Assembly: GCA_964016885.1 (NCBI GenBank)
Contig: OZ024742.1
Coordinates: forward strand, 330,770,001 to 330,834,000
Direction of reading: 5' to 3'
From: Eledone cirrhosa
Lineage: Eukaryota
Length of the DNA stretch: 64,000 nucleotides
Made by a program: the position numbers and the translations under genes. Shown here piece after piece: positions 5,381 to 60,421 of the stretch. Under the pieces are notes generated by a model, which was given only the letters and a program-made list of their open reading frames with translations, did not search any database and was not told the DNA's origin. Position 1 is the first letter of the stretch; each line of letters starts with the position of its first letter.

Positions 5381-5476
5381 ATATAAATATATATATGTAT
5401 ATATGTATATATATATATATATATAAAATATTAAACAAATAATGAACAAACAATTCCTTATATTAAACAAAAAAAG

Positions 5477-5631
5477 TTCACTATTTAACGATCGTTTCTA
5501 GGGCATATATGTGCTATAATTGGTATGCATATTTAACAGATCTATGTACAAAATTATACAAAATTATACAAATTATCAAGATTAAATATACATACCTAAC
5601 TCATATATACGCCGTCTTCAGAAATAATGAA
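5477..5631 (-). ncRNA. Type I hammerhead ribozyme (Naiad unit 1)
   Basis: Minus strand reads UUCAUUAUUU-CUGAAGA-C-GGCGUAUAU...AUAUAUGCC-CUA-GAAA-CGAUC-GUU-AAAUAGUGAA: 10-bp stem I, stem II, palindromic stem III. Confidence 0.75.
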
Positions 5632-6399
5632 GTATATTTATTGATAATAACAACAATTCAAAATATCAGTTCAAAATTGACCAATGAAAACACAAAGGGT
5701 TAAAAAGCAGTTTGGTGTGTGTATATACATGTAAAACCCTACACACATTTTACAATAATGTGTGTATAATATGTATGTGCATACTAAAAAGATGGATGCA
5801 AATAAAAAATTTCAAGGTTAATATCTCTGTAAGCTTAATGCGCTGATAAGATACGCAATGATACTTATGTAGTCAAGCATATAAATATATTTTTTTCATA
5901 CTCACACATATCAGTATAATCACACATACATGTGCGTATATATATAAATATACACATAACCACGAACACACAAACACACACACACCCCCCACTCACATTT
6001 ATATATGTGGATATAAAATCATAAGCAAATAGAAATTAAGTCACTCACATAAACACACTGGTACACACATTTCAAGATCAAGATACAGAAATTAGGTGGG
6101 AGGGGGGGGGGAGGGGTCAGTATTAGGTTGTCAGACCAGACAGCCTAATATAAATGTATCTATAAATTATGAAAAATAAAAAAATAAAAACAATAAAATA
6201 TATTACATAATATAATGTACATACGCATACAGATATACATACACATACGTACATGTACGCACACATAGAGATATCTACACATACATACATACACACATAC
6301 CTATACTGTCCTACACACACATACATTTACACGAACATACACATACACATATAAAAAGATAAAAATACGGACACACACACGCGCAACACATACACACAT

Positions 6400-6444
<45 letters not shown>

Positions 6445-6554
6445 TATACACACACACACATAGACTCATATATATATACATACACATACATATACTTATA
6501 CATAAACATATATATCCCACACTCATACCACCATGAAAACACATACAAACATCC

Positions 6555-6604
<50 letters not shown>

Positions 6605-6701
6605 ATACACACACGTACACATATATGCATATATACGTACACATATACACACATACACATATATATATATATACACACACACATAAAATACAGACATGCA
6701 C

Positions 6702-6732
<31 letters not shown>

Positions 6733-6831
6733 CATTTCATTACCCTTATATATACACATAGTATATATACATACACAACCTCACTTATACACATATACAC
6801 ATAAGTTATATTACAATAATAATAAAGAATA

Positions 6832-6862
<31 letters not shown>

Positions 6863-7001
6863 TATACACACATATACACATATACATACATACACATACA
6901 TATACATACATACATACACATACATACATACACCTAAATATAAACATATATAAATACACACATACGAATAAAGACATATATTCACACATAGACACCTATA
7001 T

Positions 7002-7040
<39 letters not shown>

Positions 7041-7589
7041 TATCTATATACACACACATACACATACATACACATATATATAAATATATACACATATATA
7101 CACACGCACACACATACAGACGCACATACACACTCACATATATATATATATATATATATATATGTGTATGTGAGTGTGCGCAAATACATACATATATATA
7201 CACACACACACATACAAACACACACAAACACATACATATGCATACATGCACACACACACACATATATCACATAGATACGAAGATAAACATATAAATAGAG
7301 AGACATACAAATATATACAGAACCCATATACACATACATGCAAACACGCATATACATATATACATATATACACACATATATATTCCCATATACAAGCATA
7401 CACATACGCACACATATATACATATACCTACACATATATATACACCACACATTCACATACACGTACATATATAATACATATATATACATACATATACATA
7501 CATATGTATGTACAATCATATATACACACTCAATCTTACATTCATATTTACATGCTCATATATGTATTTTTATATCTAGAAATAAATAC

Positions 7590-7640
<51 letters not shown>

Positions 7641-8902
7641 ATATAGACACCCATCTACCCATATATTCATACATATACACTTACAAAAACAGATGATAAT
7701 AGTATGGGGGAAAGGGGGGGGTTTGGAGAAGGGGATCAAAGTAAATATATGTTTCAAGAAACCTATAATATTTTCCATATCTTAATTCAATGTATGTTCT
7801 TACATATTTTCAATGCTAGGAAATACGAAATCTTTGCATCACAAAATAAAAAAGTATACCATTAATCATATGTCAACTAAACCAAAGATAGTCAACATAT
7901 TGATTTCCAAGGTGTAAATTAGTTAGGTTTATAATATTTGAAGCAGAATTATGAAGTCAAACAGTAGTAGATTATTAATTACATTATAACTAAATTAAAG
8001 TTAATAATAGGGAAAAGAAACCCAAATAAAAATAAAATAAAGTATTACATCGGTAGTAGCATATAAATTATATGTAAACTAAGTTAAAAATTATATATTT
8101 ATTTCAATAGTATATGTTAATTAGTATATGTTAATTAGGTATACAATACATAAAGCAGATATTGTATTTCATCAATAGCATAATATAAATATATGCAAAT
8201 AAAAATCAAAATTAATACGCATACACATACATATACATACACATACACATACATATACATATACATACACATATATATATATATATATACATATATATAC
8301 ACACGTACATACATATATAGTCACATAAATATACATACAGATATACATACAATACACACATATACATATACATATAGATATACATATCTTTTTCAAAAAA
8401 TTTGCACAGAATATATTAACTAGGTATATATCCAAAAACACCTCCCATTCTATGATTACATGAAATTCTGCAATTCGTCTGTACAAGGATACTAATTTTA
8501 AGCAAATTAAAATTAAAATTAAAGTTTTAGGTTGATTAAAGCTAAAACCAAATAATAAATATATTTCCAAAATATATATTAATTAGGTCAATAATACTAA
8601 AAATTCTTTCTCCGTCATAGGATACATGATATTATTTTGTTATATTTTATCTGTAAAAGAATTATAATAAAAAAAATTTTATAATAAAAGGTTAAACTAA
8701 ATTAAAAAATTATAATAAAAGGTTAAAATAAGTTAAAATTAATCTATAAATTAAATTACTGAATATATATTATTAGTAATATTTAAAGGTTTTTCAAAAT
8801 TAATGATTACATAATATTTTCTCATCTGTAATAAAATATTAATTAAATTAAATTTATAGGTTAACTAACATTTAAATTAAATTAAATTCTAGAATAATGT
8901 TA

Positions 8903-11344
8903 TTAATTAGGTTTATAATATTTAAATGTTTTTTTTAGTTTATGATTACATGATATAATTAATTCCTGTCTTTTATTTAATAAGATATCCCTAGACTTCA
9001 TTATTTCAAATAGTTCTTGGGAACATAATCTACATTCCTTTCTATTATTTTGATAAGGGGTGGCTCTTTTGAGCACACTCCAGGTCAAATCATATTTTAT
9101 ATTTTTATTTTTATAACTATTGATTTTTTCTGCTAGAGATGTTGTATTAGCCAGTGCGGCATTTTTAAAGCTATGTTTGTGGGTATTATACCTTGTCTTA
9201 AAATTGTTAGAGGTAGCTCCTATATATGAGCAAATAGAATCTTTAGTTTTAACATTACATTTATAGACTATGTTGTTAACAAGACAATTCCCTTTTAATG
9301 GGCAGTTTGTTTTGTTTCTACAGTTACATCCTTTCGTTAATTCTGTATTTGAGGAGATATTATTGTTAATTTGATGTACTGGTGGTATACTTATAGTTTT
9401 CTTACATTTATATGCATTATATGCACTTATATTTTGTTTTATGTTATTTGTTGTAGAATATGAGAATTTAACTGTAGACCTATTTAAGATTTGATGGTAT
9501 TTGTGGTTTGGCGGGAAGTTTTTCTCAAGGATATAAAAAAATTTTTTAGCAATATTATCCTTAACTTGTAAATTAAAAGGAGCATTATACCAAGTAACTC
9601 GTCTATTACGGTTTCTATGTTGTTTATTATTTTTATTATTTTTATATGTTGTATCATGATTTTTACTAGGAGGAATAATGTTAATGATCTCACCACAACT
9701 ATTTTTAGTTATATTTGTAGATTTAGGTGTTTTATCTTTTTTATTAGGAGTTTTATTATTAATATTTATTATAGTCTTATGATGAGTAGTTTTTTGAGGG
9801 TTACTATACTTTATATTAGAAGATTTAGTATTTTGGGGTATACTGTGGGTGGCATTTAGGTGTGTACCTTTCATTTGGTGTTTGTTGGTAATATTATGCT
9901 GTATGTTTTCAGTATTTTTAGTAGAAGTTATATACTCTAATCTATTTTTGTGGCCACTTCTATCTAGAGCTTCATTATAAAAGGTCGCATTTTTATCAAA
10001 TACATCTTGGTTAGAAGAAAGGTTAGAAATTCTAAGTGATATATTATATGCAAGGTTTTTAAGGATAGATTTAGGGTGATTAGATTGTGAGTGTATGTAA
10101 TGTAAGTTTTGGTTAGGTTTATGGTAAGGTTGGTATATACCCGTAGCTAAATCTAAAGTTATATCTAGGAAATTTACTACTTTACTTGTTTTTTCAAAAG
10201 TAATATTAAGATTATAATAGTCCTTAAGGAAAGTTCTAATATGCTTTTTGTTTTTTTCGATTTCTGAAAGGCTAAGGTTGTTAGAAAGAAGAAGACAGTC
10301 ATCACGATATAAACCACCTTTGAGGTGGGGAAAAGAGGCATTTATGTTGAAAAGGAGAAAGAGGCCCACAAGATCAGTAATTTGGGCAGAATCGCTTGAA
10401 CCCATAGTAATATCAAAAAGATTACTATAAGTGTTTCTGGTCCAGTATTCATTCTGAAATTCAATAAGTGTTTGTCTAGCATGTGTAATAATGTTAATGT
10501 CATCCGAAGTTAAATTAGATCTATTTTTAGCAAATATTAATGCTTTGTTCAGGAGTATGGGTGATATAGAAGAATAATAGTTATCTATATCAAACTGTAG
10601 GAAAGAAGCAGAAGATTTACACCTAATATTTTTAAACCAATTAATTACCTGGGAGGTGTTTTCCCAGAGTGGTAAAATAACGTATTTTCTTATTTGTGGG
10701 ATGACTCTATCTAAAATTTTTTTGCTAATTATTCCAATATCTGATTTGGAGGGACATATAAGTCTAATAGAAGGATTAGAGTTAAAGTTAGATTTGTGAT
10801 CTTTCAGGTTAAAGTGTGGACTTCTCAATGCCAAAGGTTCAGTTCTATCTTCAATATTTAGTTTTTTTACTATGTTGTGTGTTTTGTTGTTGATGTTGGT
10901 GAGTGACGCATTATTAGATTTTTTATAACTTTTTCTGAGTTCTTTATATATGAACTCATTATAATGTTCAATATCCATATGATACAAGTTACCAGTTTTG
11001 TCCGAGTGGACATGGATTTTTTTAGACTTTTTTAGGTCCAATAGGGTAGAATCAAGGTCCTTTTGAAAGACGGATTTATACTTTTTAAATTTGAGATGTT
11101 TAATTAAATTAAAAAGGTCTTTCTCGAAGTCTTCAAGTAAAAAGTTGTGTGGTGGATTCTTGTAAGTGTTGAAATCATACATATATTTCCGATCTGCTTG
11201 TTTAGATTTTCTATCAAAGTGGTAGGCTCTCCATCTAACCCTTCTGATAAAATTATTAGTTTTCTGAATCATAAGGAGTAAGAAGTCGTCCTTAGAAGGT
11301 ATTGGTATGTTTTTTAAGGAGGTTCCTAAATATTGTTTTTCCAT
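8903..11344 (-). CDS. Penelope-like (Naiad-type) reverse transcriptase + GIY-YIG endonuclease, intact, ~813 aa from the first ATG
   Basis: N-terminal SLKNIPIP. RT motifs FDIDNYYSSI, MGS, YRDD, NFLDITLDL, SNHP. RNRRVTWYNAPF linker. CNC..CPLKGNC, IVY..YIG (GIY-YIG), C-terminal CRLC..E and LNKRQE..SCNH. First ATG at 11344; the ORF track starts at an upstream TTG. Confidence 0.93.
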   Translation of the reverse strand: MEKQYLGTSLKNIPIPSKDDFLLLMIQKTNNFIRRVRWRAYHFDRKSKQADRKYMYDFNTYKNPPHNFLLEDFEKDLFNLIKHLKFKKYKSVFQKDLDSTLLDLKKSKKIHVHSDKTGNLYHMDIEHYNEFIYKELRKSYKKSNNASLTNINNKTHNIVKKLNIEDRTEPLALRSPHFNLKDHKSNFNSNPSIRLICPSKSDIGIISKKILDRVIPQIRKYVILPLWENTSQVINWFKNIRCKSSASFLQFDIDNYYSSISPILLNKALIFAKNRSNLTSDDINIITHARQTLIEFQNEYWTRNTYSNLFDITMGSSDSAQITDLVGLFLLFNINASFPHLKGGLYRDDCLLLSNNLSLSEIEKNKKHIRTFLKDYYNLNITFEKTSKVVNFLDITLDLATGIYQPYHKPNQNLHYIHSQSNHPKSILKNLAYNISLRISNLSSNQDVFDKNATFYNEALDRSGHKNRLEYITSTKNTENIQHNITNKHQMKGTHLNATHSIPQNTKSSNIKYSNPQKTTHHKTIININNKTPNKKDKTPKSTNITKNSCGEIINIIPPSKNHDTTYKNNKNNKQHRNRNRRVTWYNAPFNLQVKDNIAKKFFYILEKNFPPNHKYHQILNRSTVKFSYSTTNNIKQNISAYNAYKCKKTISIPPVHQINNNISSNTELTKGCNCRNKTNCPLKGNCLVNNIVYKCNVKTKDSICSYIGATSNNFKTRYNTHKHSFKNAALANTTSLAEKINSYKNKNIKYDLTWSVLKRATPYQNNRKECRLCSQELFEIMKSRDILLNKRQELIISCNHKLKKTFKYYKPN

Positions 11345-11687
11345 TGTGATATGGATGATGGACAATTGAAAGAGCTCAACTAAATGTATATGGGTTTACA
11401 AAATCATACATATATATATGTATATACATAAATATAAAATTAATACACACATACAGTACAAAAATACGAATATTTCCGTGAAAATAGGAGCAAAATTATG
11501 TAGATAAATCTACCAAGAGTTTACGGTAGTGTCCAATCCGTATGAAGAACTCAATGTATTCCGGATATCATGGAAAGAAGAGATGTAATGAAAATCCAAT
11601 TTCGGTGAAAGATAAACGGTATACAGAGTCAAGATAAAATATTAAACAAATAATGAACAAACAATTCCTTATATTAAACAAAAAAAG

Positions 11688-11842
11688 TTCACTATTTAAC
11701 GATCGTTTCTAGGGCATATATGTGCTATAATTGGTATGCATATTTAACAGATCTATGTACAAAATTATACAAAATTATACAAATTATCAAGATTAAATAT
11801 ACATACCTAACTCATATATACGCCGTCTTCAGAAATAATGAA
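11688..11842 (-). ncRNA. Type I hammerhead ribozyme (Naiad unit 2)
   Basis: Same sequence as 5477-5631; lies ~340 nt upstream of the next ORF's ATG. Confidence 0.75.
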
Positions 11843-12610
11843 GTATATTTATTGATAATAACAACAATTCAAAATATCAGTTCAAAATTGACCAATGAAA
11901 ACACAAAGGGTTAAAAAGCAGTTTAGTGTGTGTATATACATGTAAAACCCTACACACATTTTACAATAATGTGTGTATAATATGTATGTGCATACTAAAA
12001 AGATGGATGCAAATAAAAAATTTCAAGGTTAATATCTCTGTAAGCTTAATGCGCTGATAAGATACGCAATGATACTTATGTAGTCAAGCATATAAATATA
12101 TTTTTTTCATACTCACACATATCAGTATAATCACACATACATGTGCGTATATATATAAATATACACATAACCACGAACACACAAACACACACACACCCCC
12201 CACTCACATTTATATATGTGGATATAAAATCATAAGCAAATAGAAATTAAGTCACTCACATAAACACACTGGTACACACATTTCAAGATCAAGATACAGA
12301 AATTAGGTGGGAGGGGGGGGGGAGGGGTCAGTATTAGGTTGTCAGACCAGACAGCCTAATATAAATGTATCTATAAATTATGAAAAATAAAAAAATAAAA
12401 ACAATAAAATATATTACATAATATAATGTACATACGCATACAGATATACATACACATACGTACATGTACGCACACATAGAGATATCTACACATACATACA
12501 TACACACATACCTATACTGTCCTACACACACATACATTTACACGAACATACACATACACATATAAAAAGATAAAAATACGGACACACACACGCGCAACAC
12601 ATACACACAT

Positions 12611-12655
<45 letters not shown>

Positions 12656-12765
12656 TATACACACACACACATAGACTCATATATATATACATACACATAC
12701 ATATACTTATACATAAACATATATATCCCACACTCATACCACCATGAAAACACATACAAACATCC

Positions 12766-12817
<52 letters not shown>

Positions 12818-12914
12818 ATACACACACGTACACATATATGCATATATACGTACACATATACACACATACACATATATATATATATACACACACACATAAA
12901 ATACAGACATGCAC

Positions 12915-12945
<31 letters not shown>

Positions 12946-13044
12946 CATTTCATTACCCTTATATATACACATAGTATATATACATACACAACCTCACTTA
13001 TACACATATACACATAAGTTATATTACAATAATAATAAAGAATA

Positions 13045-13075
<31 letters not shown>

Positions 13076-13214
13076 TATACACACATATACACATATACAT
13101 ACATACACATACATATACATACATACATACACATACATACATACACCTAAATATAAACATATATAAATACACACATACGAATAAAGACATATATTCACAC
13201 ATAGACACCTATAT

Positions 13215-13253
<39 letters not shown>

Positions 13254-13802
13254 TATCTATATACACACACATACACATACATACACATATATATAAATAT
13301 ATACACATATATACACACGCACACACATACAGACGCACATACACACTCACATATATATATATATATATATATATATGTGTATGTGAGTGTGCGCAAATAC
13401 ATACATATATATACACACACACACATACAAACACACACAAACACATACATATGCATACATGCACACACACACACATATATCACATAGATACGAAGATAAA
13501 CATATAAATAGAGAGACATACAAATATATACAGAACCCATATACACATACATGCAAACACGCATATACATATATACATATATACACACATATATATTCCC
13601 ATATACAAGCATACACATACGCACACATATATACATATACCTACACATATATATACACCACACATTCACATACACGTACATATATAATACATATATATAC
13701 ATACATATACATACATATGTATGTACAATCATATATACACACTCAATCTTACATTCATATTTACATGCTCATATATGTATTTTTATATCTAGAAATAAAT
13801 AC

Positions 13803-13851
<49 letters not shown>

Positions 13852-15113
13852 ATATAGACACCCATCTACCCATATATTCATACATATACACTTACAAAAA
13901 CAGATGATAATAGTATGGGGGAAAGGGGGGGGTTTGGAGAAGGGGATCAAAGTAAATATATGTTTCAAGAAACCTATAATATTTTCCATATCTTAATTCA
14001 ATGTATGTTCTTACATATTTTCAATGCTAGGAAATACGAAATCTTTGCATCACAAAATAAAAAAGTATACCATTAATCATATGTCAACTAAACCAAAGAT
14101 AGTCAACATATTGATTTCCAAGGTGTAAATTAGTTAGGTTTATAATATTTGAAGCAGAATTATGAAGTCAAACAGTAGTAGATTATTAATTACATTATAA
14201 CTAAATTAAAGTTAATAATAGGGAAAAGAAACCCAAATAAAAATAAAATAAAGTATTACATCGGTAGTAGCATATAAATTATATGTAAACTAAGTTAAAA
14301 ATTATATATTTATTTCAATAGTATATGTTAATTAGTATATGTTAATTAGGTATACAATACATAAAGCAGATATTGTATTTCATCAATAGCATAATATAAA
14401 TATATGCAAATAAAAATCAAAATTAATACGCATACACATACATATACATACACATACACATACATATACATATACATACACATATATATATATATATATA
14501 CATATATATACACACGTACATACATATATAGTCACATAAATATACATACAGATATACATACAATACACACATATACATATACATATAGATATACATATCT
14601 TTTTCAAAAAATTTGCACAGAATATATTAACTAGGTATATATCCAAAAACACCTCCCATTCTATGATTACATGAAATTCTGCAATTCGTCTGTACAAGGA
14701 TACTAATTTTAAGCAAATTAAAATTAAAATTAAAGTTTTAGGTTGATTAAAGCTAAAACCAAATAATAAATATATTTCCAAAATATATATTAATTAGGTC
14801 AATAATACTAAAAATTCTTTCTCCGTCATAGGATACATGATATTATTTTGTTATATTTTATCTGTAAAAGAATTATAATAAAAAAAATTTTATAATAAAA
14901 GGTTAAACTAAATTAAAAAATTATAATAAAAGGTTAAAATAAGTTAAAATTAATCTATAAATTAAATTACTGAATATATATTATTAGTAATATTTAAAGG
15001 TTTTTCAAAATTAATGATTACATAATATTTTCTCATCTGTAATAAAATATTAATTAAATTAAATTTATAGGTTAACTAACATTTAAATTAAATTAAATTC
15101 TAGAATAATGTTA

Positions 15114-17555
15114 TTAATTAGGTTTATAATATTTAAATGTTTTTTTTAGTTTATGATTACATGATATAATTAATTCCTGTCTTTTATTTAATAAGATATC
15201 CCTAGACTTCATTATTTCAAATAGTTCTTGGGAACATAATCTACATTCCTTTCTATTATTTTGATAAGGGGTGGCTCTTTTGAGCACACTCCAGGTCAAA
15301 TCATATTTTATATTTTTATTTTTATAACTATTGATTTTTTCTGCTAGAGATGTTGTATTAGCCAGTGCGGCATTTTTAAAGCTATGTTTGTGGGTATTAT
15401 ACCTTGTCTTAAAATTGTTAGAGGTAGCTCCTATATATGAGCAAATAGAATCTTTAGTTTTAACATTACATTTATAGACTATGTTGTTAACAAGACAATT
15501 CCCTTTTAATGGGCAGTTTGTTTTGTTTCTACAGTTACATCCTTTCGTTAATTCTGTATTTGAGGAGATATTATTGTTAATTTGATGTACTGGTGGTATA
15601 CTTATAGTTTTCTTACATTTATATGCATTATATGCACTTATATTTTGTTTTATGTTATTTGTTGTAGAATATGAGAATTTAACTGTAGACCTATTTAAGA
15701 TTTGATGGTATTTGTGGTTTGGCGGGAAGTTTTTCTCAAGGATATAAAAAAATTTTTTAGCAATATTATCCTTAACTTGTAAATTAAAAGGAGCATTATA
15801 CCAAGTAACTCGTCTATTACGGTTTCTATGTTGTTTATTATTTTTATTATTTTTATATGTTGTATCATGATTTTTACTAGGAGGAATAATGTTAATGATC
15901 TCACCACAACTATTTTTAGTTATATTTGTAGATTTAGGTGTTTTATCTTTTTTATTAGGAGTTTTATTATTAATATTTATTATAGTCTTATGATGAGTAG
16001 TTTTTTGAGGGTTACTATACTTTATATTAGAAGATTTAGTATTTTGGGGTATACTGTGGGTGGCATTTAGGTGTGTACCTTTCATTTGGTGTTTGTTGGT
16101 AATATTATGCTGTATGTTTTCAGTATTTTTAGTAGAAGTTATATACTCTAATCTATTTTTGTGGCCACTTCTATCTAGAGCTTCATTATAAAAGGTCGCA
16201 TTTTTATCAAATACATCTTGGTTAGAAGAAAGGTTAGAAATTCTAAGTGATATATTATATGCAAGGTTTTTAAGGATAGATTTAGGGTGATTAGATTGTG
16301 AGTGTATGTAATGTAAGTTTTGGTTAGGTTTATGGTAAGGTTGGTATATACCCGTAGCTAAATCTAAAGTTATATCTAGGAAATTTACTACTTTACTTGT
16401 TTTTTCAAAAGTAATATTAAGATTATAATAGTCCTTAAGGAAAGTTCTAATATGCTTTTTGTTTTTTTCGATTTCTGAAAGGCTAAGGTTGTTAGAAAGA
16501 AGAAGACAGTCATCACGATATAAACCACCTTTGAGGTGGGGAAAAGAGGCATTTATGTTGAAAAGGAGAAAGAGGCCCACAAGATCAGTAATTTGGGCAG
16601 AATCGCTTGAACCCATAGTAATATCAAAAAGATTACTATAAGTGTTTCTGGTCCAGTATTCATTCTGAAATTCAATAAGTGTTTGTCTAGCATGTGTAAT
16701 AATGTTAATGTCATCCGAAGTTAAATTAGATCTATTTTTAGCAAATATTAATGCTTTGTTCAGGAGTATGGGTGATATAGAAGAATAATAGTTATCTATA
16801 TCAAACTGTAGGAAAGAAGCAGAAGATTTACACCTAATATTTTTAAACCAATTAATTACCTGGGAGGTGTTTTCCCAGAGTGGTAAAATAACGTATTTTC
16901 TTATTTGTGGGATGACTCTATCTAAAATTTTTTTGCTAATTATTCCAATATCTGATTTGGAGGGACATATAAGTCTAATAGAAGGATTAGAGTTAAAGTT
17001 AGATTTGTGATCTTTCAGGTTAAAGTGTGGACTTCTCAATGCCAAAGGTTCAGTTCTATCTTCAATATTTAGTTTTTTTACTATGTTGTGTGTTTTGTTG
17101 TTGATGTTGGTGAGTGACGCATTATTAGATTTTTTATAACTTTTTCTGAGTTCTTTATATATGAACTCATTATAATGTTCAATATCCATATGATACAAGT
17201 TACCAGTTTTGTCCGAGTGGACATGGATTTTTTTAGACTTTTTTAGGTCCAATAGGGTAGAATCAAGGTCCTTTTGAAAGACGGATTTATACTTTTTAAA
17301 TTTGAGATGTTTAATTAAATTAAAAAGGTCTTTCTCGAAGTCTTCAAGTAAAAAGTTGTGTGGTGGATTCTTGTAAGTGTTGAAATCATACATATATTTC
17401 CGATCTGCTTGTTTAGATTTTCTATCAAAGTGGTAGGCTCTCCATCTAACCCTTCTGATAAAATTATTAGTTTTCTGAATCATAAGGAGTAAGAAGTCGT
17501 CCTTAGAAGGTATTGGTATGTTTTTTAAGGAGGTTCCTAAATATTGTTTTTCCAT
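15114..17555 (-). CDS. Second copy of the Naiad-type RT + GIY-YIG ORF
   Basis: Translation identical to the 8903-11365 copy in the ORF track. Confidence 0.93.
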   Translation of the reverse strand: MEKQYLGTSLKNIPIPSKDDFLLLMIQKTNNFIRRVRWRAYHFDRKSKQADRKYMYDFNTYKNPPHNFLLEDFEKDLFNLIKHLKFKKYKSVFQKDLDSTLLDLKKSKKIHVHSDKTGNLYHMDIEHYNEFIYKELRKSYKKSNNASLTNINNKTHNIVKKLNIEDRTEPLALRSPHFNLKDHKSNFNSNPSIRLICPSKSDIGIISKKILDRVIPQIRKYVILPLWENTSQVINWFKNIRCKSSASFLQFDIDNYYSSISPILLNKALIFAKNRSNLTSDDINIITHARQTLIEFQNEYWTRNTYSNLFDITMGSSDSAQITDLVGLFLLFNINASFPHLKGGLYRDDCLLLSNNLSLSEIEKNKKHIRTFLKDYYNLNITFEKTSKVVNFLDITLDLATGIYQPYHKPNQNLHYIHSQSNHPKSILKNLAYNISLRISNLSSNQDVFDKNATFYNEALDRSGHKNRLEYITSTKNTENIQHNITNKHQMKGTHLNATHSIPQNTKSSNIKYSNPQKTTHHKTIININNKTPNKKDKTPKSTNITKNSCGEIINIIPPSKNHDTTYKNNKNNKQHRNRNRRVTWYNAPFNLQVKDNIAKKFFYILEKNFPPNHKYHQILNRSTVKFSYSTTNNIKQNISAYNAYKCKKTISIPPVHQINNNISSNTELTKGCNCRNKTNCPLKGNCLVNNIVYKCNVKTKDSICSYIGATSNNFKTRYNTHKHSFKNAALANTTSLAEKINSYKNKNIKYDLTWSVLKRATPYQNNRKECRLCSQELFEIMKSRDILLNKRQELIISCNHKLKKTFKYYKPN

Positions 17556-17898
17556 TGTGATATGGATGATGGACAATTGAAAGAGCTCAACTAAATGTAT
17601 ATGGGTTTACAAAATCATACATATATATATGTATATACATAAATATAAAATTAATACACACATACAGTACAAAAATACGAATATTTCCGTGAAAATAGGA
17701 GCAAAATTATGTAGATAAATCTACCAAGAGTTTACGGTAGTGTCCAATCCGTATGAAGAACTCAATGTATTCCGGATATCATGGAAAGAAGAGATGTAAT
17801 GAAAATCCAATTTCGGTGAAAGATAAACGGTATACAGAGTCAAGATAAAATATTAAACAAATAATGAACAAACAATTCCTTATATTAAACAAAAAAAG

Positions 17899-18053
17899 TT
17901 CACTATTTAACGATCGTTTCTAGGGCATATATGTGCTATAATTGGTATGCATATTTAACAGATCTATGTACAAAATTATACAAAATTATACAAATTATCA
18001 AGATTAAATATACATACCTAACTCATATATACGCCGTCTTCAGAAATAATGAA
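17899..18053 (-). ncRNA. Type I hammerhead ribozyme (Naiad unit 3)
   Basis: Same sequence as 5477-5631. Confidence 0.75.
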
Positions 18054-18821
18054 GTATATTTATTGATAATAACAACAATTCAAAATATCAGTTCAAAATT
18101 GACCAATGAAAACACAAAGGGTTAAAAAGCAGTTTGGTGTGTGTATATACATGTAAAACCCTACACACATTTTACAATAATGTGTGTATAATATGTATGT
18201 GCATACTAAAAAGATGGATGCAAATAAAAAATTTCAAGGTTAATATCTCTGTAAGCTTAATGCGCTGATAAGATACGCAATGATACTTATGTAGTCAAGC
18301 ATATAAATATATTTTTTTCATACTCACACATATCAGTATAATCACACATACATGTGCGTATATATATAAATATACACATAACCACGAACACACAAACACA
18401 CACACACCCCCCACTCACATTTATATATGTGGATATAAAATCATAAGCAAATAGAAATTAAGTCACTCACATAAACACACTGGTACACACATTTCAAGAT
18501 CAAGATACAGAAATTAGGTGGGAGGGGGGGGGGAGGGGTCAGTATTAGGTTGTCAGACCAGACAGCCTAATATAAATGTATCTATAAATTATGAAAAATA
18601 AAAAAATAAAAACAATAAAATATATTACATAATATAATGTACATACGCATACAGATATACATACACATACGTACATGTACGCACACATAGAGATATCTAC
18701 ACATACATACATACACACATACCTATACTGTCCTACACACACATACATTTACACGAACATACACATACACATATAAAAAGATAAAAATACGGACACACAC
18801 ACGCGCAACACATACACACAT

Positions 18822-18866
<45 letters not shown>

Positions 18867-18976
18867 TATACACACACACACATAGACTCATATATATATA
18901 CATACACATACATATACTTATACATAAACATATATATCCCACACTCATACCACCATGAAAACACATACAAACATCC

Positions 18977-19024
<48 letters not shown>

Positions 19025-19121
19025 ATACACACACGTACACATATATGCATATATACGTACACATATACACACATACACATATATATATATATACACACAC
19101 ACATAAAATACAGACATGCAC

Positions 19122-19152
<31 letters not shown>

Positions 19153-19251
19153 CATTTCATTACCCTTATATATACACATAGTATATATACATACACAACC
19201 TCACTTATACACATATACACATAAGTTATATTACAATAATAATAAAGAATA

Positions 19252-19282
<31 letters not shown>

Positions 19283-19421
19283 TATACACACATATACACA
19301 TATACATACATACACATACATATACATACATACATACACATACATACATACACCTAAATATAAACATATATAAATACACACATACGAATAAAGACATATA
19401 TTCACACATAGACACCTATAT

Positions 19422-19460
<39 letters not shown>

Positions 19461-20010
19461 TATCTATATACACACACATACACATACATACACATATATA
19501 TAAATATATACACATATATACACACGCACACACATACAGACGCACATACACACTCACATATATATATATATATATATATATATGTGTATGTGAGTGTGCG
19601 CAAATACATACATATATATACACACACACACATACAAACACACACAAACACATACATATGCATACATGCACACACACACACATATATCACATAGATACGA
19701 AGATAAACATATAAATAGAGAGACATACAAATATATACAGAACCCATATACACATACATGCAAACACGCATATACATATATACATATATACACACATATA
19801 TATTCCCATATACAAGCATACACATACGCACACATATATACATATACCTACACATATATATACACCACACATTCACATACACGTACATATATAATACATA
19901 TATATACATACATATACATACATATGTATGTACAATCATATATACACACTCAATCTTACATTCATATTTACATGCTCATATATGTATTTTTATATCTAGA
20001 AATAAATACC

Positions 20011-20041
<31 letters not shown>

Positions 20042-21303
20042 ATATAGACACCCATCTACCCATATATTCATACATATACACTTACAAAAACAGATGATAA
20101 TAGTATGGGGGAAAGGGGGGGGTTTGGAGAAGGGGATCAAAGTAAATATATGTTTCAAGAAACCTATAATATTTTCCATATCTTAATTCAATGTATGTTC
20201 TTACATATTTTCAATGCTAGGAAATACGAAATCTTTGCATCACAAAATAAAAAAGTATACCATTAATCATATGTCAACTAAACCAAAGATAGTCAACATA
20301 TTGATTTCCAAGGTGTAAATTAGTTAGGTTTATAATATTTGAAGCAGAATTATGAAGTCAAACAGTAGTAGATTATTAATTACATTATAACTAAATTAAA
20401 GTTAATAATAGGGAAAAGAAACCCAAATAAAAATAAAATAAAGTATTACATCGGTAGTAGCATATAAATTATATGTAAACTAAGTTAAAAATTATATATT
20501 TATTTCAATAGTATATGTTAATTAGTATATGTTAATTAGGTATACAATACATAAAGCAGATATTGTATTTCATCAATAGCATAATATAAATATATGCAAA
20601 TAAAAATCAAAATTAATACGCATACACATACATATACATACACATACACATACATATACATATACATACACATATATATATATATATATACATATATATA
20701 CACACGTACATACATATATAGTCACATAAATATACATACAGATATACATACAATACACACATATACATATACATATAGATATACATATCTTTTTCAAAAA
20801 ATTTGCACAGAATATATTAACTAGGTATATATCCAAAAACACCTCCCATTCTATGATTACATGAAATTCTGCAATTCGTCTGTACAAGGATACTAATTTT
20901 AAGCAAATTAAAATTAAAATTAAAGTTTTAGGTTGATTAAAGCTAAAACCAAATAATAAATATATTTCCAAAATATATATTAATTAGGTCAATAATACTA
21001 AAAATTCTTTCTCCGTCATAGGATACATGATATTATTTTGTTATATTTTATCTGTAAAAGAATTATAATAAAAAAAATTTTATAATAAAAGGTTAAACTA
21101 AATTAAAAAATTATAATAAAAGGTTAAAATAAGTTAAAATTAATCTATAAATTAAATTACTGAATATATATTATTAGTAATATTTAAAGGTTTTTCAAAA
21201 TTAATGATTACATAATATTTTCTCATCTGTAATAAAATATTAATTAAATTAAATTTATAGGTTAACTAACATTTAAATTAAATTAAATTCTAGAATAATG
21301 TTA

Positions 21304-22755
21304 TTAATTAGGTTTATAATATTTAAATGTTTTTTTTAGTTTATGATTACATGATATAATTAATTCCTGTCTTTTATTTAATAAGATATCCCTAGACTTC
21401 ATTATTTCAAATAGTTCTTGGGAACATAATCTACATTCCTTTCTATTATTTTGATAAGGGGTGGCTCTTTTGAGCACACTCCAGGTCAAATCATATTTTA
21501 TATTTTTATTTTTATAACTATTGATTTTTTCTGCTAGAGATGTTGTATTAGCCAGTGCGGCATTTTTAAAGCTATGTTTGTGGGTATTATACCTTGTCTT
21601 AAAATTGTTAGAGGTAGCTCCTATATATGAGCAAATAGAATCTTTAGTTTTAACATTACATTTATAGACTATGTTGTTAACAAGACAATTCCCTTTTAAT
21701 GGGCAGTTTGTTTTGTTTCTACAGTTACATCCTTTCGTTAATTCTGTATTTGAGGAGATATTATTGTTAATTTGATGTACTGGTGGTATACTTATAGTTT
21801 TCTTACATTTATATGCATTATATGCACTTATATTTTGTTTTATGTTATTTGTTGTAGAATATGAGAATTTAACTGTAGACCTATTTAAGATTTGATGGTA
21901 TTTGTGGTTTGGCGGGAAGTTTTTCTCAAGGATATAAAAAAATTTTTTAGCAATATTATCCTTAACTTGTAAATTAAAAGGAGCATTATACCAAGTAACT
22001 CGTCTATTACGGTTTCTATGTTGTTTATTATTTTTATTATTTTTATATGTTGTATCATGATTTTTACTAGGAGGAATAATGTTAATGATCTCACCACAAC
22101 TATTTTTAGTTATATTTGTAGATTTAGGTGTTTTATCTTTTTTATTAGGAGTTTTATTATTAATATTTATTATAGTCTTATGATGAGTAGTTTTTTGAGG
22201 GTTACTATACTTTATATTAGAAGATTTAGTATTTTGGGGTATACTGTGGGTGGCATTTAGGTGTGTACCTTTCATTTGGTGTTTGTTGGTAATATTATGC
22301 TGTATGTTTTCAGTATTTTTAGTAGAAGTTATATACTCTAATCTATTTTTGTGGCCACTTCTATCTAGAGCTTCATTATAAAAGGTCGCATTTTTATCAA
22401 ATACATCTTGGTTAGAAGAAAGGTTAGAAATTCTAAGTGATATATTATATGCAAGGTTTTTAAGGATAGATTTAGGGTGATTAGATTGTGAGTGTATGTA
22501 ATGTAAGTTTTGGTTAGGTTTATGGTAAGGTTGGTATATACCCGTAGCTAAATCTAAAGTTATATCTAGGAAATTTACTACTTTACTTGTTTTTTCAAAA
22601 GTAATATTAAGATTATAATAGTCCTTAAGGAAAGTTCTAATATGCTTTTTGTTTTTTTCGATTTCTGAAAGGCTAAGGTTGTTAGAAAGAAGAAGACAGT
22701 CATCACGATATAAACCACCTTTGAGGTGGGGAAAAGAGGCATTTATGTTGAAAAG
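21304..22755 (-). pseudogene. 5'-truncated third copy of the Naiad-type ORF (from just upstream of YRDD to the stop)
   Basis: Matches the other units until the inversion junction at 22754-22755. Confidence 0.9.
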
Positions 22756-24975
22756 AAAGACCTTTTTAATTTAATTAAACATCTCAAATTTAAAAAGTAT
22801 AAATCCGTCTTTCAAAAGGACCTTGATTCTACCCTATTGGACCTAAAAAAGTCTAAAAAAATCCATGTCCACTCGGACAAAACTGGTAACTTGTATCATA
22901 TGGATATTGAACATTATAATGAGTTCATATATAAAGAACTCAGAAAAAGTTATAAAAAATCTAATAATGCGTCACTCACCAACATCAACAACAAAACACA
23001 CAACATAGTAAAAAAACTAAATATTGAAGATAGAACTGAACCTTTGGCATTGAGAAGTCCACACTTTAACCTGAAAGATCACAAATCTAACTTTAACTCT
23101 AATCCTTCTATTAGACTTATATGTCCCTCCAAATCAGATATTGGAATAATTAGCAAAAAAATTTTAGATAGAGTCATCCCACAAATAAGAAAATACGTTA
23201 TTTTACCACTCTGGGAAAACACCTCCCAGGTAATTAATTGGTTTAAAAATATTAGGTGTAAATCTTCTGCTTCTTTCCTACAGTTTGATATAGATAACTA
23301 TTATTCTTCTATATCACCCATACTCCTGAACAAAGCATTAATATTTGCTAAAAATAGATCTAATTTAACTTCGGATGACATTAACATTATTACACATGCT
23401 AGACAAACACTTATTGAATTTCAGAATGAATACTGGACCAGAAACACTTATAGTAATCTTTTTGATATTACTATGGGTTCAAGCGATTCTGCCCAAATTA
23501 CTGATCTTGTGGGCCTCTTTCTCCTTTTCAACATAAATGCCTCTTTTCCCCACCTCAAAGGTGGTTTATATCGTGATGACTGTCTTCTTCTTTCTAACAA
23601 CCTTAGCCTTTCAGAAATCGAAAAAAACAAAAAGCATATTAGAACTTTCCTTAAGGACTATTATAATCTTAATATTACTTTTGAAAAAACAAGTAAAGTA
23701 GTAAATTTCCTAGATATAACTTTAGATTTAGCTACGGGTATATACCAACCTTACCATAAACCTAACCAAAACTTACATTACATACACTCACAATCTAATC
23801 ACCCTAAATCTATCCTTAAAAACCTTGCATATAATATATCACTTAGAATTTCTAACCTTTCTTCTAACCAAGATGTATTTGATAAAAATGCGACCTTTTA
23901 TAATGAAGCTCTAGATAGAAGTGGCCACAAAAATAGATTAGAGTATATAACTTCTACTAAAAATACTGAAAACATACAGCATAATATTACCAACAAACAC
24001 CAAATGAAAGGTACACACCTAAATGCCACCCACAGTATACCCCAAAATACTAAATCTTCTAATATAAAGTATAGTAACCCTCAAAAAACTACTCATCATA
24101 AGACTATAATAAATATTAATAATAAAACTCCTAATAAAAAAGATAAAACACCTAAATCTACAAATATAACTAAAAATAGTTGTGGTGAGATCATTAACAT
24201 TATTCCTCCTAGTAAAAATCATGATACAACATATAAAAATAATAAAAATAATAAACAACATAGAAACCGTAATAGACGAGTTACTTGGTATAATGCTCCT
24301 TTTAATTTACAAGTTAAGGATAATATTGCTAAAAAATTTTTTTATATCCTTGAGAAAAACTTCCCGCCAAACCACAAATACCATCAAATCTTAAATAGGT
24401 CTACAGTTAAATTCTCATATTCTACAACAAATAACATAAAACAAAATATAAGTGCATATAATGCATATAAATGTAAGAAAACTATAAGTATACCACCAGT
24501 ACATCAAATTAACAATAATATCTCCTCAAATACAGAATTAACGAAAGGATGTAACTGTAGAAACAAAACAAACTGCCCATTAAAAGGGAATTGTCTTGTT
24601 AACAACATAGTCTATAAATGTAATGTTAAAACTAAAGATTCTATTTGCTCATATATAGGAGCTACCTCTAACAATTTTAAGACAAGGTATAATACCCACA
24701 AACATAGCTTTAAAAATGCCGCACTGGCTAATACAACATCTCTAGCAGAAAAAATCAATAGTTATAAAAATAAAAATATAAAATATGATTTGACCTGGAG
24801 TGTGCTCAAAAGAGCCACCCCTTATCAAAATAATAGAAAGGAATGTAGATTATGTTCCCAAGAACTATTTGAAATAATGAAGTCTAGGGATATCTTATTA
24901 AATAAAAGACAGGAATTAATTATATCATGTAATCATAAACTAAAAAAAACATTTAAATATTATAAACCTAATTAA
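22754..24975 (+). pseudogene. Inverted, 5'-truncated Naiad-type ORF (starts at KDLFNLIK, lacks ~75 N-terminal aa)
   Basis: The 749-aa ORF 22726-24975 is identical to the unit ORF from KDLFNL onward. Its first ~10 aa derive from the antisense arm. Confidence 0.9.
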
Positions 24976-26237
24976 TAACATTATTCTAGAATTTAATTTA
25001 ATTTAAATGTTAGTTAACCTATAAATTTAATTTAATTAATATTTTATTACAGATGAGAAAATATTATGTAATCATTAATTTTGAAAAACCTTTAAATATT
25101 ACTAATAATATATATTCAGTAATTTAATTTATAGATTAATTTTAACTTATTTTAACCTTTTATTATAATTTTTTAATTTAGTTTAACCCTTTATTATAAA
25201 ATTTTTTTTATTATAATTCTTTTACAGATAAAATATAACAAAATAATATCATGTATCCTATGACGGAGAAAGAATTTTTAGTATTATTGACCTAATTAAT
25301 ATATATTTTGGAAATATATTTATTATTTGGTTTTAGCTTTAATCAACCTAAAACTTTAATTTTAATTTTAATTTGCTTAAAATTAGTATCCTTGTACAGA
25401 CGAATTGCAGAATTTCATGTAATCATAGAATGGGAGGTGTTTTTGGATATATACCTAGTTAATATATTCTGTGCAAATTTTTTGAAAAAGATATGTATAT
25501 CTATATGTATATGTATATGTGTGTATTGTATGTATATCTGTATGTATATTTATGTGACTATATATGTATGTACGTGTGTATATATATGTATATATATATA
25601 TATATATGTGTATGTATATGTATATGTATGTGTATGTGTATGTATATGTATGTGTATGCGTATTAATTTTGATTTTTATTTGCATATATTTATATTATGC
25701 TATTGATGAAATACAATATCTGCTTTATGTATTGTATACCTAATTAACATATACTAATTAACATATACTATTGAAATAAATATATAATTTTTAACTTAGT
25801 TTACATATAATTTATATGCTACTACCGATGTAATACTTTATTTTATTTTTATTTGGGTTTCTTTTCCCTATTATTAACTTTAATTTAGTTATAATGTAAT
25901 TAATAATCTACTACTGTTTGACTTCATAATTCTGCTTCAAATATTATAAACCTAACTAATTTACACCTTGGAAATCAATATGTTGACTATCTTTGGTTTA
26001 GTTGACATATGATTAATGGTATACTTTTTTATTTTGTGATGCAAAGATTTCGTATTTCCTAGCATTGAAAATATGTAAGAACATACATTGAATTAAGATA
26101 TGGAAAATATTATAGGTTTCTTGAAACATATATTTACTTTGATCCCCTTCTCCAAACCCCCCCCTTTCCCCCATACTATTATCATCTGTTTTTGTAAGTG
26201 TATATGTATGAATATATGGGTAGATGGGTGTCTATAT

Positions 26238-26272
<35 letters not shown>

Positions 26273-26821
26273 GTATTTATTTCTAGATATAAAAATACAT
26301 ATATGAGCATGTAAATATGAATGTAAGATTGAGTGTGTATATATGATTGTACATACATATGTATGTATATGTATGTATATATATGTATTATATATGTACG
26401 TGTATGTGAATGTGTGGTGTATATATATGTGTAGGTATATGTATATATGTGTGCGTATGTGTATGCTTGTATATGGGAATATATATGTGTGTATATATGT
26501 ATATATGTATATGCGTGTTTGCATGTATGTGTATATGGGTTCTGTATATATTTGTATGTCTCTCTATTTATATGTTTATCTTCGTATCTATGTGATATAT
26601 GTGTGTGTGTGTGCATGTATGCATATGTATGTGTTTGTGTGTGTTTGTATGTGTGTGTGTGTATATATATGTATGTATTTGCGCACACTCACATACACAT
26701 ATATATATATATATATATATATATGTGAGTGTGTATGTGCGTCTGTATGTGTGTGCGTGTGTATATATGTGTATATATTTATATATATGTGTATGTATGT
26801 GTATGTGTGTGTATATAGATA

Positions 26822-26860
<39 letters not shown>

Positions 26861-26999
26861 ATATAGGTGTCTATGTGTGAATATATGTCTTTATTCGTAT
26901 GTGTGTATTTATATATGTTTATATTTAGGTGTATGTATGTATGTGTATGTATGTATGTATATGTATGTGTATGTATGTATATGTGTATATGTGTGTATA

Positions 27000-27030
<31 letters not shown>

Positions 27031-27129
27031 TATTCTTTATTATTATTGTAATATAACTTATGTGTATATGTGTATAAGTGAGGTTGTGTATGTATATATA
27101 CTATGTGTATATATAAGGGTAATGAAATG

Positions 27130-27160
<31 letters not shown>

Positions 27161-27257
27161 GTGCATGTCTGTATTTTATGTGTGTGTGTATATATATATA
27201 TATGTGTATGTGTGTATATGTGTACGTATATATGCATATATGTGTACGTGTGTGTAT

Positions 27258-27307
<50 letters not shown>

Positions 27308-27417
27308 GGATGTTTGTATGTGTTTTCATGGTGGTATGAGTGTGGGATATATATGTTTATGTATAAGTATATGTATGTGTATGTATATATATATGAGTCT
27401 ATGTGTGTGTGTGTATA

Positions 27418-27462
<45 letters not shown>

Positions 27463-28231
27463 ATGTGTGTATGTGTTGCGCGTGTGTGTGTCCGTATTTT
27501 TATCTTTTTATATGTGTATGTGTATGTTCGTGTAAATGTATGTGTGTGTAGGACAGTATAGGTATGTGTGTATGTATGTATGTGTAGATATCTCTATGTG
27601 TGCGTACATGTACGTATGTGTATGTATATCTGTATGCGTATGTACATTATATTATGTAATATATTTTATTGTTTTTATTTTTTTATTTTTCATAATTTAT
27701 AGATACATTTATATTAGGCTGTCTGGTCTGACAACCTAATACTGACCCCTCCCCCCCCCCCTCCCACCTAATTTCTGTATTTTGATCTTGAAATGTGTGT
27801 ACCAGTGTGTTTATGTGAGTGACTTAATTTCTATTTGCTTATGATTTTATATCCACATATATAAATGTGAGTGGGGGGTGTGTGTGTGTTTGTGTGTTCG
27901 TGGTTATGTGTATATTTATATATATACGCACATGTATGTGTGATTATACTGATATGTGTGAGTATGAAAAAAATATATTTATATGCTTGACTACATAAGT
28001 ATCATTGCGTATCTTATCAGCGCATTAAGCTTACAGAGATATTAACCTTGAAATTTTTTATTTGCATCCATCTTTTTAGTATGCACATACATATTATACA
28101 CACATTATTGTAAAATGTGTGTAGGGTTTTACATGTATATACACACACCAAACTGCTTTTTAACCCTTTGTGTTTTCATTGGTCAATTTTGAACTGATAT
28201 TTTGAATTGTTGTTATTATCAATAAATATAC

Positions 28232-28386
28232 TTCATTATTTCTGAAGACGGCGTATATATGAGTTAGGTATGTATATTTAATCTTGATAATTTGTATAAT
28301 TTTGTATAATTTTGTACATAGATCTGTTAAATATGCATACCAATTATAGCACATATATGCCCTAGAAACGATCGTTAAATAGTGAA
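28232..28386 (+). ncRNA. Type I hammerhead ribozyme (inverted Naiad arm)
   Basis: TTCATTATTT 28232-41, CTGAAGA 28242-48, GAAA 28365-68, GTT 28374-76, AAATAGTGAA 28377-86. Confidence 0.78.
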
Positions 28387-28577
28387 CTTTTTTTGTTTAA
28401 TATAAGGAATTGTTTGTTCATTATTTGTTTAATATTTTATCTTGACTCTGTATACCGTTTATCTTTCACCGAAATTGGATTTTCATTACATCTCTTCTTT
28501 CCATGATATCCGGAATACATTGAGTTCTTCATACGGATTGGACACTACCGTAAACTCTTGGTAGATTTATCTACATA

Positions 28578-46840: not shown

Positions 46841-46948
46841 ATTATATCTGCGATCTAACTTACTCGGTCCTCAATGTTGCCATTGACTGACCGGCGGTCA
46901 AAAATAATACAGATACAATATAGACACAAACACATATATATATACTTT

Positions 46949-56862: not shown

Positions 56863-57054
56863 GTATATGTAGATTAATCTACCAAAATGTACGGTAGTCT
56901 CCAATCCGTATTAAGAACTCAATGTAATCCGAATATCATGAAAAGAGAAGATGTATTCCAAAATTTTTTTCGGTGAAAATTAACGGAAAACAGAGTCAAG
57001 ATAAATTAATAAAATAATGAATAAACAAAGAAACAGTTCCTCATATTAAAAAAT

Positions 57055-57192
57055 TCATCATTTTACGATCGTTTCTAGGATATATATGTTAGTGTTTGTA
57101 TGCATATCCTATAGATCTATGTAAAATGTTTACAAACTATCAGAGGGAGTATACAAACGTACACATATATATGCTGTCTTCAGAAATAATGA
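57055..57192 (-). ncRNA. Type I hammerhead ribozyme of the older Naiad copy
   Basis: UCAUUAUUU-CUGAAGA-CAGCAUAUAUAUG...CAUAUAUAUCCUA-GAAA-CGAUC-GUA-AAAUGAUGA. Stem I pairing is kept despite substitutions. Confidence 0.75.
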
Positions 57193-60070: not shown

Positions 60071-60421
60071 ATTAATATAATTTTATCAATATAAATATAC
60101 CCATCAATTAAATTAATTTATATTCTTTTCATAGATGTAAATTCCATATATACTTTTTTCACTAACACATTTATTCAATGAACAAATATAATTATTTCTG
60201 AGGTCAGCATATGACCTATTCTCATCCCTAAAATAATCTTTCATTCATAATATTCTTTCCATCCAAAACTGAAATCTACCTTCCTCTACCCATAAATTAC
60301 GGTTCTTTTACTACTATATTAATATGTTGACCTTCACTATCTTTCTATTGGTTAATTCAAAACCTGTTCCCAAACAGACCTATTGTATTAAATCTTTGTT
60401 GGTTTTTTCAATAAACAAATA

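Follow-up and report, generated by a model that had tools for sequence, protein, structure and literature searches.

A type I hammerhead motif with a long predicted stem II near the 3' end of a Penelope-like element in Eledone cirrhosa

Penelope-like elements in the window

The window, i.e. the whole analysed stretch of 64,000 nt from Eledone cirrhosa (contig OZ024742.1), comprises a Penelope-like element (PLE) arranged as three tandem units plus one inverted unit, with unit ends adjoining (TA)n. The three head-to-tail units, with a period of 6,211 nt, extend over 5423..22755 on the minus strand and carry 813-aa ORFs at 8903-11344 and 15114-17555. The inverted unit (22754..28577, plus strand) is truncated at its 5' end and preserves ORF residues 74-813. 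Units are 99.6-99.9% identical to one another. Element ends determined by self-BLAST are 5423/28440 and 11497/28577; at the 3' end of the inverted unit (28387..28577, plus strand), the end point 28440 is followed by a 137-nt tail to 28577 and then by (TA)n. The tail (28441-28577) ends in a hairpin-forming sequence and is 83% conserved, with 114/137 positions identical to an older element in the same window. The broken ORF of this older element (58210-60070), located near the hammerhead copy at 57054-57193, corresponds to a protein 80-86% identical to that of the young element. A possible 75-nt intron (GTATGT ... TTAG) was noticed at 11454-11380 on the minus strand; it would lie after a unit tail and ahead of the ATG at 11344. 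PLEs are known to carry introns in the 5' UTR.

Motifs in the 813-aa ORF are RWR (37), DKT (115), YRDD (346), CNCRNKTNC of the CxCx5C type (673), YIG (707), CRLC (771) and CNH (799); among them, the linker and endonuclease motifs CNCRNKTNC, CRLC and CNH are conserved in the alignment of relatives. Protein search with this ORF revealed 117 homologues, and Pfam and PDB sequence searches with the 813-aa protein gave no match. The protein contains both YRDD and YIG; Pfam matches to GIY-YIG were weak and limited to 3 of the 35 aligned relatives. Judging by these motifs and by a by-eye match to published Hydra proteins, the element probably belongs to the Hydra clade of PLEs. Traits given for this clade in the accessible part of PMC8557442 are an RWK-type N-terminal motif, DKT, the CxCX5C linker, and CxxC and CxH around the E and N of EN, and the RWR variant of RWK is present in the published Hydra-1_Crog. 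The clade is further characterized by an RT with a GIY-YIG endonuclease C-terminal to it, and by insertion in (TA)n with tailed units in tandem and inverted order. Identity with Hydra-1_Obim was considered and rejected; its hammerhead differs, and gaaacgatcg is absent from the PMC8557442 supplement.

The stop codon and the hammerhead core are separated by 3,267 nt in the young element vs 1,024 nt in the older one, and the unit is for this reason twice the usual Hydra length. The 3' UTR (24976-28200) is microsatellite-rich, 3.3 kb long and three times that of the older relative. The young and older 3' UTRs align over their last 371 nt; elsewhere they share short repeat-like matches only.

Hammerhead core and its copies

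The hammerhead is located 191 nt before the end of the 6,211-nt unit. In the inverted unit, with all modules on the plus strand, the 5' strand of stem I (28232..28241) pairs in 10/10 positions with the 3' strand (28377..28386), as proposed in an earlier sequence-only reading; pair probabilities are 0.43-0.99. Core positions C3-A9 (CUGAAGA, 28242..28248) are followed by the extended stem II (28249..28364) and by G12-A14 together with stem III (A15.1 C GAUC G U16.1, 28365..28375). The distance between CUGAAGA and GAAA is 116 nt, in agreement with the previous estimate of about 115 nt. The second core half reads GAAA-C-GAUC-GU-U (28365-28376), with GAAA at 28365-28368 and the GUU site, also recognized earlier, at 28374-28376. 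According to the hammerhead consensus and the type I scan, cleavage is predicted after U17 (28376..28377). An AAUAAA hexamer (28221..28226, plus strand), 5 nt upstream of stem I, is retained in the older copies. A small hairpin over AAUAAA is predicted by RNAalifold at 28206-28226 in all copies.

The motif is present in six copies. Four young ones are identical: 28232-28386 (plus strand), and 5477-5631, 11688-11842 and 17899-18053 (all minus strand). The older subfamily is represented by 57054..57193 on the minus strand, 3' of the broken ORF, with a 101-nt stem II, and by 60421..60562 on the plus strand, within an inverted 3' fragment, with a 103-nt stem II. The core, CUA-GAAACGAUCG, AAAUGAUGA and GUA described before as retained in a single older copy were indeed found, in two copies instead of one. 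Both older copies are identical to the young ones in C3-A9 (7/7) and in the G12-A14 and stem III segment (11/11), and keep 9/10 pairs in stem I, with two one-sided changes that retain pairing. Position 17 is U in the young copies (GUU) and A in the older ones (GUA). The type I core C3 U4 G5 A6 N7 G8 A9 / G12 A13 A14, with A15.1-U16.1 and H17, is complete in 6/6 copies. Three helices are predicted: an open-ended stem I of 9-10 bp, stem II with 11/13 proximal pairs, and stem III of 2 bp, or of 8 bp in a dimer.

A permissive type I scan of the window (spacer up to 150 nt, stem I of at least 5 bp) disclosed the six copies and three short-armed motifs. The same scan of 300 shuffled 64-kb windows on both strands gave 76 matches with stem I of at least 5 bp and 6 with at least 9 bp; none of the shuffled windows contained stem I of at least 5 bp combined with at least 11/13 proximal stem II pairs. 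The motif near the 3' end of the PLE is thus a genuine type I hammerhead core.

Core and stem III are identical between the two subfamilies in 18/18 positions vs 77% in the flanks (p about 0.009); counted over the 11 consensus positions alone, p is about 0.06. In the older element, a tandem duplication of 234 bp (57169-57634 of the window) includes only the 5' half of the hammerhead. The duplicated half-core reads CUGAGGU, with A9 lost, and one stem I base is changed. The same 5' half is also found near 60185-60212.

Other hammerhead-like motifs occur in the window. A third family (51820 and 53460 on the plus strand, 51740 and 37413 on the minus strand) has a 26-27-nt stem II, GUA and ends in (TA)n. 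Its closure is U-A or A.A and its stem III ACCACUGGU; at 37413, GAAA reads GCAA. The segment 51612-51948 of this family is an inverted pair, with no nearby ORF match to the Hydra element. The family represents a natural short-armed comparator. A second PLE (46841-50916) also forms an inverted pair, with ORFs 47776-48942 (minus strand) and 49031-50482 (plus strand); its CUGACGA-U-stem-GAAA motifs at 50763 (plus strand) and 46994 (minus strand) fall below the stem I filter.

Stem II closure and stem III

When read in a continuous register from the core, stem II starts with C.A, G-U, G-C, C.C, G-C and U-G in the young copy, and with C.A, A-U, G-C, C.C, A-U and U-A in the older copies. It comprises 11/13 pairs in each copy, and a G-C to A-U change is included between the subfamilies. 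The register proposed in the sequence-only reading, offset from the core by C and CUA (GGCGUAUAU/AUAUAUGCC), accounts for 9/9 pairs in the young copy, but both older copies lose 2 of its 3 G-C pairs, and it was abandoned. A register with an extra C followed by G against A at 10.1 was likewise rejected, with merely 2-3/12 pairs. If C and A are instead taken as additional bases, one per side, the pairs are identical to those of the continuous register, so the two descriptions are indistinguishable.

As previously noted, an R10.1-Y11.1 closing pair directly on the core, typical of canonical tertiary-stabilised type I hammerheads (retrozyme/Schistosoma type), is absent; C.A is present in all copies. 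The min-HHR descriptor already permits stem II to be flanked by an additional base on either side. C.A closure was found in none of the 25 published Hydra families and in none of the 18 motifs from related loci. A literature search on C10.1/A11.1 closure that covered few subscription papers gave no matching report. In the available part of Perreault 2011 (PMC3088659), U.U is the mispair at 10.1/11.1 giving most cleavage. The 4-bp helix II of that canonical type, with a loop contacting loop I, is not present; contact could still be established via the conserved C.C mismatch at pair 4.

Stem III consists of A15.1-U16.1 and C-G around GAUC, and the 8-nt perfect palindrome at 28368-28375 is present in all copies. 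The palindromic stem III suggested earlier holds for this 8-mer; the 10-mer AACGATCGTT (28367-28376) extends into core positions A14 and U17, and only the 8-mer is found in the older copies.

Extended stem II arm

In predicted folds of the isolated 116-nt spacer, 86/116 nt are paired (-38.8 kcal/mol, z -6.4), with none of 500 shuffles as stable. Folds predicted for the older spacers have z of -3.0 (5/500 shuffles as stable) and -3.6 (1/500). The segment earlier described as a loop II of about 95 nt is therefore replaced by a predicted rod-like stem II, kept in the older copies. Folding of the whole motif (z -4.9) leaves CUGAAGAC unpaired, and the RNAalifold consensus shows one rod common to all three distinct sequences. 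Helix II is predicted as an imperfect 33-43-bp rod and stem I is unbroken over 9-10 bp. Among 60 windows compared along the 3' UTR, the arm ranks first in stability (z -7.2; runner-up -3.4). Its tip carries a slipped TAATTTTGTA repeat, detected by TRF at 28279-28316, and has gained an 11-nt insertion. The arm consists of AU/GU-rich repeats complementary to themselves, and the genome is rich in (TA)n.

Maintenance of the arm was assessed on a 40-pair structure drawn by us from predicted folds, using three distinct sequences of two lineages. Over the whole motif, 118/120 cells are paired, with 2 two-sided and 4 one-sided changes. The covariation score on this structure, coming from two lineages only, was equalled by 48/500 shuffles, i.e. 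it is not significant, and for this reason we consider covariation only suggestive. In stem I and proximal stem II, 6/7 changes between subfamilies retain pairing. The outcome of drift simulations depends on the direction simulated. Simulated from young to old, the arm gave 82 and 52 of 600 and the proximal pairs p 0.07-0.33, neither of them significant, whereas the simulation from old to young was significant (0/600 for the arm; p 0.003-0.017 for proximal pairs).

According to the model built on these predictions, the 116 nt would fold back on themselves, and CUGAAGA and GAAA would meet across the C.A mismatch in the same way as with a short spacer. The arm is most likely a tolerated and structurally maintained extension, and not a new catalytic part. 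A long spacer must fold to hold the core together, so folding alone is no proof of an added role. In the literature searched, with few subscription papers covered and some of them available in part, no hammerhead with a comparable arm was found; the longest helix II there has 6-8 bp.

Detection by database searches

With a limit of E<=1, 224 Rfam matches were obtained over the entire window; no hammerhead is among the 150 of them listed, nearly all of which are microsatellite-driven miRNA. At E<=10, the 511-nt region around the motif had 10 matches, none of them a hammerhead. Two matches, again without a hammerhead, were obtained in the control region 50500-51000, despite the normal-sized hammerhead-like motif at 50763. 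Because this motif is also missed, failure of Rfam is not specific to the long-armed variant. In the min-HHR descriptor (PMC4209133, as far as the available text describes it), stem II has at most 7 bp and loop 2 at most 10 nt, while extra N10 and N11 are allowed. With these limits, no more than 26 nt can separate the core halves, and the long-armed motif therefore escapes the descriptor. The expectation that standard searches would miss this variant is borne out in its outcome and by the length limits, but the miss in Rfam is not peculiar to the variant.

Proposed cleavage and alternative explanations

The motif is best explained as a type I hammerhead placed near the 3' end of a Hydra-clade PLE, in which stem II is predicted to have grown into a long arm, and which probably cleaves slowly, and faster with a dimer partner or with the protein of the element. 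Its status as a slow, conditional ribozyme is inferred from insertion ends that run past the predicted cut, and from weak or protein-dependent analogues. Four features would weaken the monomer: closure by C.A, a stem III of 2 bp, the GUU site, and the lack of an evident contact between loops I and II, stem I being unbroken and the stem II tip about 40 bp away. In constrained folding, the monomer hammerhead fold lies 1.2 kcal/mol above the MFE. Several core bases of the monomer are predicted to be partly paired; their probability of being unpaired falls as low as 0.48 in the young copy and 0.2 in the older copies.

If a transcript reads through the minus-strand array, neighbouring hammerheads on it may exchange their stem I strands and build a stem III of 8 bp. 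The dimer would then cut after U17, freeing a unit RNA of 6,211 nt whose ends would stay held by stem I; unit-length RNA may in this way be released occasionally from read-through transcripts. With concentration ignored, the predicted double hammerhead with swapped stem I strands has -98.2 vs -83.4 kcal/mol for two monomers of the young copy, and -69.2 vs -54.4 and -73.8 vs -59.0 kcal/mol for the older copies. The best predicted dimer of the young copy (-100.6 kcal/mol) contains an A14-U17 pair and is more stable than the active form by 2.4 kcal/mol, a competition enabled by the 10-nt palindrome. For the older copies, with GUA, the best fold and the active dimer are predicted to be equally stable. 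Tandem units, suggested earlier as the source of a dimer partner, could serve the three minus-strand copies, which are 6,211 nt apart, but not the plus-strand copy at 28232, which is without a partner in cis and could pair solely in trans.

Each of the six insertions continues beyond the predicted cut, by 64 or 201 nt, and these two end points are shared by both subfamilies. Reverse-transcribed RNA must therefore have been continuous there, either uncut or re-ligated, which fits slow and conditional cutting. The same observation, that the site is carried intact in every insertion, would also be expected if the hammerhead were catalytically dead or nearly so and its fold retained as a structural signal of the 3' end, e.g. 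for the RT of the element. This explanation is unlikely. It gains from the co-occurrence of several weakening features and from the anole PLE, which inserts in vitro without cleavage and for which, in the accessible part of PMC11167929, no RNA-seq reads ended at the site. It is opposed by the invariance of catalytically important core bases between subfamilies whose flanks are 77% identical, by position 17, switched solely between the cleavable letters U and A, and by decay of the partnerless half-core of the older element to CUGAGGU, in which A9 is lost.

Retention of the rod in both subfamilies, as the most stable of 60 windows in the 3' UTR, raises the question of a role for the arm itself. 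It is rather doubtful that stem II is a conserved 35-43-bp platform that gates cleavage, either by binding the RT-EN protein or by joining AAUAAA with its downstream element. Equally doubtful is that such a platform would direct a choice among uncut template RNA, polyadenylated RNA without half of the ribozyme, and a released, circularisable 6.2-kb unit. We also regard as improbable that the arm is a docking site or a switch gating cleavage for the protein or the 3'-end machinery of the element, for instance by bringing the upstream AAUAAA beside U/GU-rich sequence 160 nt downstream. Protein-assisted PLE hammerheads do exist (PMC11167929, available part). A(A/U)UAAA is located within 30 nt of the core in 12/20 motifs vs 1.8 expected from shuffles, in sequences that are related and not independent, with the hexamer upstream of the core in 6 and downstream in 6. 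Nevertheless, any such element would be expected to have a poly(A) signal close to its 3' end, spacers in relatives have only 11-31 nt, and the arm is built of self-complementary AU/GU-rich repeats with the 11-nt insertion at the tip.

An efficient monomeric ribozyme requiring no partner is hardly probable. The 10-bp stem I, the very stable stem II and the small distance of the hammerhead fold from the MFE would be in its favour. So would chrysovirus hammerheads, which have a longer helix II (6 bp), lack clear contacts between loops and cleave at 2-3 per min according to the available part of PMC13725137, but these motifs have a longer helix III, while stem III described here has 2 bp and is a perfect palindrome in all copies. 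Six of six insertions spanning the site are also hard to reconcile with fast cutting, unless re-ligation is efficient. Finally, both CUGANGA and GAAA recur often in the window, and AU-rich sequence makes up stem I and a large part of stem II, but a chance match in AT-rich DNA has a negligible probability given its absence from 300 shuffled windows, its conservation in a 23%-diverged subfamily and its position where Hydra-clade hammerheads sit.

If the slow, conditional hammerhead preferred here does cleave, it would extend the natural length of stem II well past that of the PLE hammerheads examined (101-116 nt vs at most 31 nt in related loci and at most about 54 nt in the published table), and no new chemistry is suggested by it. 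When no hammerhead is detected in a PLE, length caps in the search may be the cause. Were the platform interpretation true, length-capped descriptors would be blind to long-armed motifs and might hide a class of them in invertebrate PLEs. A young element with nearly identical units and intact ORFs, GUU and GUA versions, and a short-armed family in the same window provide a test case for the role of hammerheads in PLEs.

Comparison with related and known hammerheads

One scan of bacterial genome records revealed 18 contigs (L001-L018) that encode relatives of the element. The contigs probably represent host-animal DNA carried into the assemblies. The records come from marine sources, and L007 is located on a 492-kb contig. 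Hammerhead motifs were found in 16/18 related loci (14 by scan and 2 by eye); in the remaining two, the contig stops no more than 26 nt from the ORF match. No spacer over 40 nt was detected in the 18 loci under the filter applied, and BLASTN of 28200-28577 against them gave no match. After exclusion of duplicates and one truncated motif, 18 distinct motifs were hand-picked from these loci, some of them not adjacent to an ORF. Their spacers are 11-31 nt long, closure is G-C in 11, U.U in 5, A-U in 2 and C.A in 0, U17 is present in 4 and a perfect stem III palindrome in 3.

Published Hydra-clade hammerheads were compared on the table of Craig et al. 2021 (PMC8557442, File S2, from the part available), with 25 families (26 rows minus one duplicate) counted by eye. 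Stem II closure is a pyrimidine mismatch in 15, G.U in 3 and G-C in 7, and site 17 is U in 10, A in 11 and C in 4. GUC and GUA are the fastest hammerhead sites and GUU is usable (PMC3138052, available part). The description of closure, GUU and stem III as atypical does not stand for the clade, since mismatched closure (15/25), U17 (10/25) and short stem III are common in it; C.A itself is rare, and the length of the arm is the real outlier. Hydra-clade hammerheads share with the Eledone motif the type I form, the sense strand, a position near the 3' end of the element and a short stem III. They differ in a spacer between core halves of at most 26 nt vs 101-116 nt, stem I of 3-7 bp in most rows vs 9-10 bp, and a unit generally under 3 kb vs 6.2 kb with a 3.3-kb 3' UTR. 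In the same source, C...A closure is found in PLE-X1_cBra (ctgatgac ... agaa), an EN-minus plant element listed as canonical, and stem-loop II is enlarged in the EN-minus plant elements PLE-X1_sMoe and PLE-X1_sTam to about 54 and 48 nt, less than half of the arm described here. Literature searches for an octopus hammerhead in a Penelope element and for a polyadenylation signal in pLTR, covering few subscription papers, gave no matching reports.

The dimer-type PLE hammerhead with palindromic stem III, put forward in the sequence-only reading, corresponds in type to published PLE dimers. A palindromic stem III and an extra base beside helix II are shared with the PLE min-HHRs and dimeric type I motifs described in the accessible text of Cervera and de la Pena 2014 (PMC4209133). 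Their helix II, however, has 4-8 bp, and min-HHRs show high conservation of G10.1-C11.1, in contrast to the long arm and C.A closure of the Eledone element. PLE min-HHRs and dimeric type I motifs are characterized by low activity as monomers and a gain as dimers, often with no clear tertiary contact (PMC4209133 and PMC7229834, in the parts available). An example is axolotl HHR_Amex2, with a 2-bp stem III, a tetraloop and U.U at the base of stem II, whose monomer is 22% cleaved in 1 h and whose dimer cleaves much better (PMC7229834). Partners are a few hundred nt apart in retrozymes vs 6.2 kb here.

The anole Poseidon element PAc, known to us from the available part of PMC11167929, likewise has a hammerhead in its pLTR, and its insertions end at two points, delimiting a tail downstream of the site. 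It belongs to another PLE clade, has a short stem II, an ORF that starts inside the ribozyme, and a tail of 30-40 bp vs 137 nt in the Eledone element. Its hammerhead cleaves only with the protein of the element, and uncut RNA is the main template.
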